Below, piece after piece: positions 14,866-35,406 of a stretch of DNA of 64,000 nt. The notes under the pieces were generated by a model. It saw nothing but the letters and a program-made list of their open reading frames with translations. It had not been told where the DNA came from and did no database searches. Both the position numbers and the translations under genes were made by a program. Numbering within the stretch: the stretch's first letter is position 1; each line of letters begins with the position of its first letter. Source of the stretch: Escherichia coli (GTDB lineage Bacteria; Pseudomonadota; Gammaproteobacteria; Enterobacterales; Enterobacteriaceae); the NCBI RefSeq assembly GCF_041886205.1, contig NZ_CP169029.1; one strand, written 5' to 3'.

Positions 14866-14941
14866 TGGCTCCTCTGACTGGACTCGAACCAGTGACATAC
14901 GGATTAACAGTCCGCCGTTCTACCGACTGAACTACAGAGGA
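14866..14941 (-). tRNA. asnV: tRNA-Asn (GUU)
   Basis: Reverse complement equals TCCTCTGTAGTTCAGTCGGTAGAACGGCGGACTGTTAATCCGTATGTCACTGGTTCGAGTCCAGTCAGAGGAGCCA. Confidence 0.95.
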
Positions 14942-14959
14942 ATCGTGTGAACGGGGCGC

Positions 14960-14988
14960 ATATTAATGGCAGTGCATGGTGATGTCAA
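14960..14988 (-). promoter_or_regulatory. Sigma70 promoter of tRNA-Asn (TTGACA-17-TAATAT)
   Basis: Consensus -35 and near-consensus -10 about 18 nt upstream of the tRNA 5' end; GC-rich discriminator. Confidence 0.55.
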
Positions 14989-15196
14989 AGGGTGAAATGC
15001 ATTTTTTTGTTTGTTTGCTGTCAATTTCAACAAAGTGGTGAGCTTTCAATCTTATTGGGTAATGAACCATCGTGGTGCATACCCTCCTTTTATAGGGCAG
15101 GGGAACGCGACAGCTGATTAAAGGAGCAAATGACGAATCTATCATAATCTCTTATTTGACAGTTGGTTAGCTTGTACATCAACACCAAAATAAAAC

Positions 15197-15212
15197 TGGC
15201 AAGCATCTTGCA
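15197..15212 (+). promoter_or_regulatory. Sigma54 (-24/-12) promoter of nac
   Basis: TGGCAAGCATCTTGCA (GG-N10-GC) about 55 nt upstream of nac; NtrC-like element ACCATCGTGGTGCAT about 130 nt further upstream. Confidence 0.6.
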
Positions 15213-15267
15213 ATCTGGTTGTAAGTAATGGCGGCACTTGGGCCGATTCTTAAAAACCGGAGGCAAC

Positions 15268-33800: not shown

Positions 33801-34970
33801 GCTGCCAGGTTGCCAGGTAAAATCGACGGCAAAACGGGTGTCATTTTCGCCCTGTTTACCCTGGCGTTGCTCCGCGCTGAAGGTCATCAGCGGGAAGGGG
33901 GTATAGTTAAGTCCAGCGGTTATGGCATGAGGATTACTTTGCCGATCGTCTTTATCGAACAGGGCCACTTCATCGCCATAATACTGTTCATAGACCAGTT
34001 TACCGCCAAGGTGCGGCCAGGCGGGTAGCCAGCTTTCTGCGCGTACATCCCAGCCATTGGCCGGGCGTGCTTCATAATCGTTGTCCAGTTCAGGTGCGCT
34101 GCGCCAGTTGGTCAGTCGCAAATAGCCGTTACTGCTTAATTTTAGATAGTCGCGCCAGTACTCCGCGCCAATGCCGGCGCGGGAGTGGTAACGGCTAAGA
34201 TCGTGGTCGAAAAAGAAGTTGATGCCCGACATCCATGTGGGAGTGAAATGACGCCAACCTAAGCCGTTGTTAATCTGCGTACGCTCGTCAGTACGATGGA
34301 GAGTATGCTGACTGAAAAAGAGATTATCAGGCGTTTCATACCACGGATGGAGAAAATCGAACTGGGAGTTCTTCAGGCTAAAATCTTCATCCACGCCCAG
34401 CGTGATTCTTGCGGTACCGAAGCGGCTTAACCAGTCTGTCATTGCGCCTGAAGCCTGAGAAGAGGCCCATCCACGCGCCATATTTGCCGCTTGCTCGCTG
34501 TTCATATCTTCGGCGAGCAGAGACCCGATTTGCTGTGAAGTACTGGCTATCTGTTGCTCGAGGTTGTCACTGCTATTACCCGGCGGCGGGGTTAATTTTT
34601 TTTCACTAACTTGTGCCGGGACATCCAGTTCATCACCCTGGCGGACATTATCAAAACCTCGAGCAAACGTACGAAACTGGTTGAGTTTGCGTAACTCAGC
34701 CACCGAAATACCGAAACGTTCGGCAACGCTTTGGGCCGATTCCAACGCTCCAAGGGTGTAGGGCACCGTATTGGCATTTGCAATGGCAATTTGTGCAGGA
34801 ACTGGTTGTTGGGTTGCGGCGTTTACCACACCTTGTGCTGCCGCAGCCATAGGGAACGCAAGTTGAGTTATCAGACAGATACCCGCAGTTAAGCGGCGTA
34901 GTTTAATTCCCATCCCGCATAATATTTGTCGGTCATTTATTTCTTCTCCACTTCTCTTCTTCGTAGCCAT
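27894..34970 (-). CDS. yeeJ: Inverse autotransporter adhesin YeeJ (LysM + intimin/invasin-type beta-barrel + tandem bacterial Ig-like domains + C-terminal lectin-like domain)
   Basis: Giant ORF (track 2383 aa; shown start is the internal ATG MATKKR...); signal peptide, LysM segment, about 20 repeats of the ...TVTASL...NGxSDxxQVNFIAD type, C-terminal Cys-containing domain. Confidence 0.9.
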   Translation of the reverse strand: MATKKRSGEEINDRQILCGMGIKLRRLTAGICLITQLAFPMAAAAQGVVNAATQQPVPAQIAIANANTVPYTLGALESAQSVAERFGISVAELRKLNQFRTFARGFDNVRQGDELDVPAQVSEKKLTPPPGNSSDNLEQQIASTSQQIGSLLAEDMNSEQAANMARGWASSQASGAMTDWLSRFGTARITLGVDEDFSLKNSQFDFLHPWYETPDNLFFSQHTLHRTDERTQINNGLGWRHFTPTWMSGINFFFDHDLSRYHSRAGIGAEYWRDYLKLSSNGYLRLTNWRSAPELDNDYEARPANGWDVRAESWLPAWPHLGGKLVYEQYYGDEVALFDKDDRQSNPHAITAGLNYTPFPLMTFSAEQRQGKQGENDTRFAVDFTWQPGSAMQKQLDPNEVAARRSLAGSRYDLVDRNNNIVLEYRKKELVRLTLTDPVTGKSGEVKSLVSSLQTKYALKGYNVEATALEAAGGKVVTTGKDILVTLPAYRFTSTPETDNTWPIEVTAEDAKGNLSNREQSMVVVQAPTLSQKDSSVSLSTQTLNADSHSTATLTFIAHDAAGNPVVGLVLSTRHEGVQDITLSDWKDNGDGSYTQILTTGAMSGTLTLMPQLNGVDAAKAPAVVNIISVSSSRTHSSIKIDKDRYLSGNPIEVTVELRDENDKPVKEQKQQLNNAVSIDNVKPGVTTDWKETADGVYKATYTAYTKGSGLTAKLLMQNWNEDLHTAGFIIDANPQSAKIATLSASNNGVLANENAANTVSVNVADEGSNPINDHTVTFAVLSGSATSFNNQNTAKTDVNGLATFDLKSSKQEDNTVEVTLENGVKQTLIVSFVGDSSTAQVDLQKSKNEVVADGNDSVTMTATVRDAKGNLLNDVMVTFNVNSAEAKLSQTEVNSHDGIATATLTSLKNGDYRVTASVSSGSQANQQVNFIGDQSTAALTLSVPSGDITVTNTAPQYMTATLQDKNGNPLKDKEITFSVPNDVASKFSISNGGKGMTDSNGVAIASLTGTLAGTHMIMARLANSNVSDAQPMTFVADKDRAVVVLQTSKAEIIGNGVDETTLTATVKDPSNHPVAGITVNFTMPQDVAANFTLENNGIAITQANGEAHVTLKGKKAGTHTVTATLGNNNTSDSQPVTFVADKASAQVVLQISKDEITGNGVDSATLTATVKDQFDNEVNNLPVTFSSASSGLTLTPGVSNTNESGIAQATLAGVAFGEKTVTASLANNGASDNKTVHFIGDTAAAKIIELTPVPDSIIAGTPQNSSGSVITATVVDNNGFPVKGVTVNFTSNAATAEMTNGGQAVTNEQGKATVTYTNTRSSIESGARPDTVEASLENGSSTLSTSINVNADASTAHLTLLQALFDTVSAGETTSLYIEVKDNYGNGVPQQEVTLSVSPSEGVTPSNNAIYTTNHDGNFYASFTATKAGVYQLTATLENGDSMQQTVTYVPNVANAEITLAASKDPVIADNNDLTTLTATVADTEGNAIANTEVTFTLPEDVKANFTLSDGGKVITDAEGKAKVTLKGTKAGAHTVTASMTGGKSEQLVVNFIADTLTAQVNLNVTEDNFIANNVGMTRLQATVTDGNGNPLANEAVTFTLPADVSASFTLGQGGSAITDINGKAEVTLSGTKSGTYPVTVSVNNYGVSDTKQVTLIADAGTAKLASLTSVYSFVVSTTEGATMTASVTDANGNPVEGIKVNFRGTSVTLSSTSVETDDRGFAEILVTSTEVGLKTVSASLADKPTEVISRLLNASADVNSATITSLEIPEGQVMVAQDVAVKAHVNDQFGNPVAHQPVTFSAEPSSQMIISQNTVSTNTQGVAEVTMTPERNGSYMVKASLPNGASLEKQLEAIDEKLTLTASSPLIGVYAPTGATLTATLTSANGTPVEGQVINFSVTPEGATLSGGKVRTNSSGQAPVVLTSNKVGTYTVTASFHNGVTIQTQTTVKVTGNSSTAHVASFIADPSTIAATNTDLSTLKATVEDGSGNLIEGLTVYFALKSGSATLTSLTAVTDQNGIATTSVKGAMTGSVTVSAVTTAGGMQTVDITLVAGPADTSQSVLKSNRSSLKGDYTDSAELRLVLHDISGNPIKVSEGMEFVQSGTNVPYIKISAIDYSLNINGDYKATITGGGEGIATLIPVLNGVHQAGLSTTIQFTRAEDKIMSGTVSVNGTDLPTTTFPSQGFTGAYYQLNNDNFAPGKTAADYEFSSSASWVDVDATGKVTFKNVGSNSERITATPKSGGPSYVYEIRVKSWWVNAGEAFMIYSLAENFCSSNGYTLPRANYLNHCSSRGIGSLYSEWGDMGHYTTDAGFQSNMYWSSSPANSSEQYVVSLATGDQSVFEKLGFAYATCYKNL

Positions 34971-35283
34971 GCTTACCTTCCCTGAACGAGCTAACATAAA
35001 TGCGCCCTTTCTAGCACAGCGAAAAAATGTAAATACTGATAGCAATATGATTGAAAATTAATAACTTTTCGTTAGGCAGTTTTGGGTGTGAGTTGCAAGA
35101 GGGGAGACTACTGAATAACTCAAGTTTTATAATCGAGGGGAAAATGGTGATGGCGTTCATAGCAAAACGCCCTCAACCATAAAGGTCGAGGGCGCTTAAG
35201 ATGTTAAAAACCCGCTATCCGTTAAAAAACAATGTTCAACTAAGGTCAGTGACATTGCGCTAAAAAAGCGAATTATTAGAATT

Positions 35284-35359
35284 TGGCTCCTCTGACTGGA
35301 CTCGAACCAGTGACATACGGATTAACAGTCCGCCGTTCTACCGACTGAACTACAGAGGA
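35284..35359 (-). tRNA. asnT: tRNA-Asn (GUU)
   Basis: Identical 76-nt tRNA-Asn sequence. Confidence 0.95.
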
Positions 35360-35377
35360 ATCGTGTGAACGGGGCGA

Positions 35378-35406
35378 ATATTACTTAGCGGTACCTTGTC
35401 TGTCAA
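35378..35406 (-). promoter_or_regulatory. Sigma70 promoter of tRNA-Asn (TTGACA-17-TAATAT)
   Basis: Same architecture and flank (AATCGTGTGAACGGGGCG) as the asnV promoter. Confidence 0.55.

Follow-up and report, generated by a model that had tools for sequence, protein, structure and literature searches.

Four identical tRNA-Asn genes with unoccupied attB sites in a K-12-type asn cluster of Escherichia coli

A 64,000-nt stretch of Escherichia coli DNA (RefSeq assembly GCF_041886205.1, contig NZ_CP169029.1), hereafter called the window, carries four genes for tRNA-Asn with a GTT anticodon, on which ARAGORN and Rfam agree. Based on synteny with strain J53, these genes are asnV (14866..14941, minus strand), asnU (17275..17350, minus strand), asnW (19099..19174, plus strand), and asnT (35284..35359, minus strand), where the ldtA-asnV-nac arrangement that identifies asnV is found in both K-12 and J53. 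Each copy receives an Rfam tRNA score of 72.6 bits, compared with a gathering score of 29, and ARAGORN places the gtt anticodon at tRNA position 34 in every copy. All 76 columns of an alignment of the four genes are invariant, the CCA ends are encoded in all of them, and the tRNA-Asn loci of J53 match the window copies at 100% across the tRNA. An earlier interpretation made from the nucleotide letters without database searches (the sequence-only reading) had described four identical 76-nt tRNA-Asn genes, a description that these data uphold.

The genes adjoining each copy are also those found in K-12: ldtA and nac for asnV, cbl and yeeO for asnU, yeeO and yeeN for asnW, and yeeJ and mtfA for asnT. 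Read in the same direction as the window, J53 is annotated in RefSeq as cobU-cobS-cobT-ldtA-asnV-nac-cbl-asnU-yeeO-asnW-yeeN-amn-shiA-yeeL(pseudogene)-yeeJ-asnT-mtfA-serU-yodB, and the Pfam domains of the flanking open reading frames (ORFs) are consistent with this annotation. A megablast comparison with 5,426 complete E. coli genomes reveals that the asn region is collinear with genomes of the K-12 lineage such as J53, to which it is 99.93% identical over positions 11043-23945 and 99.5% identical over positions 26645-40001. The locus is the standard asnV/asnU/asnW/asnT cluster, set in a K-12-like backbone of phylogroup A type, sharing with the K-12 asn genes the 76-nt sequence, gene order, orientation, neighbors, promoters, and terminators. 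The window differs from K-12 by a 2.7-kb IS66-family insertion in yeeL, between asnW and asnT, and by the absence of most of CP4-44 beyond cobU. Exactly this combination occurs in no complete RefSeq E. coli genome, and none of these genomes spans positions 7500-31000 as one collinear piece. Mismatches to J53 cluster at 37000-40000 (yodB-zinT-msrQ), an interval that holds 54 of the 65 mismatches found in 26645-40001. This distribution suggests that 37000-40000 is a recombined patch; the asn cluster itself is nearly identical to that of K-12.

Upstream of each tRNA gene lies a promoter-like site composed of a TTGACA hexamer, a spacer of 16 or 17 nt, and a −10 hexamer. The sites of asnV (14960..14988, minus strand), asnW (19052..19080, plus strand), and asnT (35378..35406, minus strand) have the form TTGACA-17-TAATAT, and that of asnU (17367..17394, minus strand) reads TTGACA-16-TAAGAT. 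For asnV, 18 nt separate the −10 hexamer from the 5′ end of the tRNA, and for asnU the distance is 16 nt. All four sites match the consensus at 10 of 12 hexamer positions. The −10 hexamers are followed by G+C-rich discriminators (GCGCCCCG at asnV; elsewhere TCGCCTCG, TCGCCCCG, or GTGCCTC), and an A+T-rich stretch (0.64-0.77 A+T) precedes each −35 hexamer. A generic promoter scan recovers as many loose promoter-like sites in the window as in shuffled sequence. The stricter pattern TTGACA-N16-18-TAA[TG]AT, counted by regular expression on both strands of the 64-kb window, occurs four times, each time 16-18 nt 5′ of a tRNA-Asn gene. Because the pattern is unique within the window to these positions and always lies upstream of tRNA-Asn, the sites are promoter motifs rather than chance matches. 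Thus, the scan and the pattern count bear out the assignment of a TTGACA-16/17-TAATAT-type promoter to each copy by the sequence-only reading, with TAAGAT as the asnU variant.

These sites share with the sigma-70 promoters of stable RNA (tRNA and rRNA) genes the near-consensus hexamers, the 16- to 17-nt spacer, the G+C-rich discriminator, and the A+T-rich upstream sequence. Such stable-RNA promoters are under growth-rate and stringent control.

Each gene is also followed by hairpin structures that resemble terminators. The asnV terminator hairpin (14832..14859, minus strand) has a 12 bp stem with a predicted stability of −18 kcal/mol (z = −5.8) and precedes a T-run, and the asnU hairpin (17239..17267, minus strand), which is likewise followed by a T-run, is homologous to it. 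Two hairpins lie 3′ of asnW within 19182..19272 (plus strand). The first (19182-19211) lacks a T-run, and the second (~19237-19266), which we read directly from the sequence as CCCGGTTAC...GTGACCGGG, is followed by TTTTTT. Hairpins 3′ of asnT (35229..35269, minus strand) include a T-run after the second, and the prediction there is weak (−10.3 kcal/mol, z = −2.3). Near asnW and asnV, Rfam also gives two matches below threshold, manA-II at 33.8 bits (gathering score 100) and rnk_pseudo at 29.7 bits (gathering score 55); both coincide in part with the tRNA and terminator and were dismissed as chance.

The flanks of the four copies are related to a limited extent. Local alignment against shuffled controls identifies 24 bp of upstream homology common to asnV, asnT, and asnW, which runs from the −10 hexamer to the 5′ end of the tRNA with 21-23 of 24 positions identical, and asnU differs from the other three copies in this block. 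By the same measure, no significant homology between copies exists further upstream. A similarity between asnV and asnT in that more distant region (GTTCATTA..., aligned by MAFFT) falls below significance relative to the shuffled controls and was rejected. Homology between asnV and asnU is instead found in the 3′ flank, where ~55 bp, terminator hairpin included, are common to both. The earlier proposal that two copies share extended upstream flanks therefore holds as regards sharing, but the homology extends for only 24 bp and involves three copies (asnV, asnT, and asnW).

To compare these genes with occupied tRNA-Asn sites, we aligned the four window sites with four attL junctions and one attR junction, the latter from strain APEC E19035. 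This comparison of 3′ flanks with those of occupied genomes, which the sequence-only reading had recommended, recovers an exact repeat, CCAGTCAGAGGAGCCAA, that spans the final 16 nt of the tRNA and the nucleotide after it and is the same as the 17-bp direct repeats published for asn islands (PMC8209727). In the window, this core is located at 14865..14881 (asnV, minus strand), 17274..17290 (asnU, minus strand), 19159..19175 (asnW, plus strand), and 35283..35299 (asnT, minus strand). The last of these is the usual insertion site of the yersiniabactin island (HPI), and here a full-length yeeJ starts 313 bp beyond it. Past the core, occupied sites run into island sequence (TTTGC/TTTCC TG.TTTCATGCATCC...), whereas the window has the native flanks AATTCA, AATTCC, AATTTT, and AATTCT. 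The gene reached on the 3′ side is ldtA at asnV, cbl at asnU, yeeN at asnW, and yeeJ at asnT. In APEC E19035, which carries the colibactin (pks) island, a tyrosine integrase gene is located 161 bp past a tRNA-Asn and is followed by clbS-clbO. The tRNA 3′ end is repeated at the distal end of this island, 56 bp from the ldtA stop codon, and the asnV 3′ end occupies exactly this position in the window. Indeed, the window flank at asnV equals the attR (distal) flank of this pks strain, and all four window sites are unlike the island-side sequence.

Searches of the whole window for other traces of integration were negative. With up to 2 mismatches allowed for a 16-mer of the tRNA 3′ end and up to 3 for a 22-mer, matches occur only inside the four tRNAs, and a repeat finder returns no asn repeat besides the tRNA genes themselves. 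The distal repeat copy in the pks-positive strain APEC E19035, used as a positive control, was found. Three P4-type integrases from asn islands, namely those of pks (APEC E19035), HPI (41EC2), and an asnU island (EC45), have no match across the window by tblastn (best E = 0.5; E = 0 at control loci), and island-side DNA of two occupied sites, taken over its first 1.4-1.5 kb, likewise has no match there. Because neither an integrase nor a second 17-mer is present at any site, all four copies are unoccupied attB sites, as in K-12. The sequence-only reading had concluded that all four sites are unoccupied and lack an integrase, and had named integrase remnants or direct repeats of the tRNA 3′ end nearby as observations that would count against this conclusion. 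Neither was found, and the conclusion stands. The window sites thus present the same targets and the same 17-bp core as the asn-tRNA islands of pathogenic E. coli (HPI at asnT; pks at asnW, asnU, or asnV, including forms associated with integrative and conjugative elements (ICEs)), but without the integrase, second repeat, and cargo of those islands.

An alternative history is that one or more of these sites formerly held an island that has since been lost. Precise excision by an integrase would leave no trace, and island decay is known at asn sites, as in EC45, which has an integrase pseudogene and then a 5′-truncated yeeJ after asnT. However, the window contains no integrase fragment, second repeat, or island-side DNA, and its yeeJ is full length and retains the native 313-bp upstream region. 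Moreover, the HPI of E. coli is fixed at asnT and typically has no right repeat (PMC8209727), and loss of this form would therefore be expected to leave a scar. We consider prior occupancy to be quite improbable.

To determine how often such sites are intact, we searched the 5,426 complete E. coli genomes with 1,076-bp junction queries, each made up of the tRNA with 500 bp of flank on either side. The junction is contiguous at asnT in 2,664 genomes (49%), at asnW in 4,974 (92%), at asnU in 5,176 (95%), and at asnV in 4,664 (86%). The corresponding counts of non-contiguous junctions set an upper limit on occupancy, since junctions are also broken when identical asn copies recombine, and one rearranged genome can break the asnW and asnV queries together though only a single site is occupied (PMC8209727). 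Among sampled non-contiguous genomes, homology mostly ends a few bases past the tRNA 3′ end (query positions 576-584), and three rows reach 615-928. A homologue of the asn-type integrase is present in 2,764 genomes (51%) and is annotated beside tRNA-Asn in the hits that were sampled.

Individual genomes illustrate both occupancy and rearrangement. The integrase lies directly 3′ of tRNA-Asn in the occupied examples, and in EC45 its gene starts 161 bp after the asnU tRNA. In APEC E19035, the yeeO-asnU-cbl-nac segment is inverted and lies beside pks, and in 41EC2 the HPI is found beside nac, at asnV instead of asnT. Strain MRY15-131 has yeeO-asn joined to ldtA without cbl-nac; it also retains pocR-pduF and a cobalamin riboswitch beyond cobU. 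Inversions and alternative asn insertion sites of this kind have been described (PMC8209727), and a catalogue of islands in extraintestinal pathogenic strains lists PAI-serU, PAI-asnT, PAI-asnW, and PAI-cobU (PMC7545054), where PAI denotes a pathogenicity island. The survey and these two reports agree with the earlier statement that asn tRNA genes serve as island integration sites in other E. coli.

The only mobile element within the span of the four genes (14866-35406) is an IS66-family (ISCro1-like) insertion sequence (IS) of 2,699 bp at 23946..26644 (plus strand), which is also the only structural difference from J53 in this span. It carries tnpA, tnpB, and tnpC, interrupts the yeeL glycosyltransferase (glycosyltransferase-9) pseudogene, and is labeled in RefSeq as "IS66-like element ISCro1 family." Its ORFs match the Pfam families HTH_Tnp_1, TnpB_IS66, and DDE_Tnp_IS66, its ends are inverted and start with GTAA..., and relative to K-12 an 8-bp target duplication, CAATATTG, is located at 23938-23945 and 26645-26652. 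The element is absent from K-12 and is not tRNA-associated, and ~20 complete E. coli genomes, including HH194M and E4, have it at the same site in yeeL. The sequence-only reading had each copy directly flanked by core genes. This is accurate for the direct neighbors, which are those of K-12, but the interval between asnW and asnT is not purely core given the IS66-family element in yeeL.

This interval could be viewed differently, with the 16-kb yeeN-amn-shiA-yeeL-yeeJ segment between the convergent asnW and asnT genes representing an old tRNA-associated island. The segment is bounded on either side by the 3′ end of an asn tRNA, its contents include a large adhesin gene as well as the yeeL pseudogene and an IS element, and the G+C content falls to 0.38-0.40 immediately 3′ of asnW. 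However, asnW and asnT are inverted rather than direct repeats and therefore do not constitute an attL/attR pair. In addition, the segment has no integrase, its G+C content is ordinary (0.47-0.52) over most of its length, and the same gene set is present in K-12 and in strains of many lineages. The IS is a recent insertion whose 8-bp target duplication is intact. An island origin for this segment is thus highly improbable.

A decayed mobile-element remnant is present outside the asn cluster, at ~8400-11000 between tmaR/yeeX and cobU, the position of prophage CP4-44 in K-12. It includes a yeeW (DUF5983) fragment (8438-8632), the 3′ part of an IS2 transposase (8792-9448, 5.4 kb from asnV) that matches the Pfam family "rve, integrase core domain," a fragment of a TonB-receptor plug (9373-9792), and an IS4 fragment. 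Compared with strain YZ22PE244, ~6 kb is missing, comprising cbtA, cbeA, yeeT, yeeS, an antirestriction gene, a DUF932 gene, IS1, and part of IS2, and the deletion junction is located at 8750-8764, within IS2. Its location 3.9-6.4 kb from asnV, on the 3′ side of that gene, together with the "integrase core" match, might suggest that an island entered at asnV and that the remnant is its distal portion. However, its rve domain belongs to the DDE transposase of IS2 and not to a tyrosine integrase, it carries no copy of the asn 17-mer, and ldtA and cobTSU intervene between it and asnV in K-12 order. The cobU position has also been treated as a separate hotspot, PAI-cobU (PMC7545054). We regard a link between this remnant and asnV as having almost no chance of being correct.

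Our overall interpretation, to which we assign a probability of about 95%, is that the window contains four independent tRNA-Asn(GUU) units with unoccupied attB cores in a K-12-type cluster. The identity of the copies, the promoter and terminator motifs, the synteny, the att core, and the lack of integrases and repeats are direct observations. From established knowledge we infer promoter activity, RNase P processing, and the mechanism of integration, as follows. Each tRNA-Asn gene would function as its own small transcription unit, consisting of a promoter, a G+C-rich discriminator, a leader, a tRNA with its CCA end, and a terminator. Transcription, under control of the stable-RNA type, would be expected to start from a sigma-70 promoter in which the −35 hexamer is perfect, the spacer measures 16/17 nt, and the −10 hexamer is TAATAT or TAAGAT. 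The short leader would then be cut off by RNase P, and a hairpin terminator ~10-100 nt 3′ of the tRNA would end each unit.

The same genes would also serve as integration targets. The attB core CCAGTCAGAGGAGCCAA, made up of the last 16 nt of the tRNA and one further base, is the predicted substrate of P4-type tyrosine integrases, and the cargo inserted at this core would include the HPI, the pks island, and related ICEs. The integrase is predicted to recombine attP with the 3′ end of the tRNA and in doing so to regenerate the tRNA. An integrated island would be recognizable from an integrase gene ~160 bp 3′ of the tRNA and from a second 17-mer at its distal border.

Three considerations weigh against this interpretation. 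First, an empty attB is indistinguishable from a site that was restored through precise excision. Second, HPI or pks could lie elsewhere in the genome of the source strain given that pks is also found at non-tRNA sites in A/B1 strains (PMC8209727). The third consideration concerns the initiation of transcription. Typically, the −10 hexamer and the transcription start are separated by ~7 nt. The asn tRNA leaders have been reported to be 6-8 nt long (PMC7049720, Table 1), which, unlike the case for other stable-RNA promoters, implies that the start site is unusually far from the −10 hexamer. Given the gap of 16-18 nt between this hexamer and the tRNA, leaders of this length would put the start 10-12 nt past the −10 hexamer, an imperfect match to the predicted position of this hexamer.

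A further sequence block, (A/G)GCAAAC, is found upstream of three copies, asnV, asnU, and asnW (14989-15024, 17395-17430, and 19016-19051), in each case exactly 30 nt 5′ of the −35 hexamer; asnT lacks it. It is conceivable, if unlikely, that the GCAAAC block and the 10- to 12-nt start distance reflect an undescribed common upstream control, either an activator site or an odd mode of start-site selection that would tune the supply of tRNA-Asn. An equally plausible origin is homology left from gene duplications.

Other RNA genes in the window occupy their usual places. The tRNA-Ser(CGA) gene serU (36351-36440, plus strand), identified by ARAGORN, is a known island site that holds PAI-serU with TcpC in strains CFT073 and 536. 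In the window it is unoccupied, being followed by yodB as in K-12, with no integrase homology detected in the window by tblastn. The small RNAs DsrA (54619-54705, 102.5 bits) and RseX (46194-46283, 97.7 bits) are at their expected positions.

The observation made here is real and its interpretation is right, yet it is already part of the literature and textbooks on E. coli, and the empty-site configuration and its uses are documented (PMC8209727, PMC7545054). At a chromosomal hotspot where extraintestinal pathogenic strains carry the yersiniabactin and colibactin islands, the window shows the empty sites that are classic for commensal K-12-like E. coli. The region is usable as a clean attB reference for calling the presence of islands, and also for detecting inversions and deletions that arise by recombination between identical tRNA copies.

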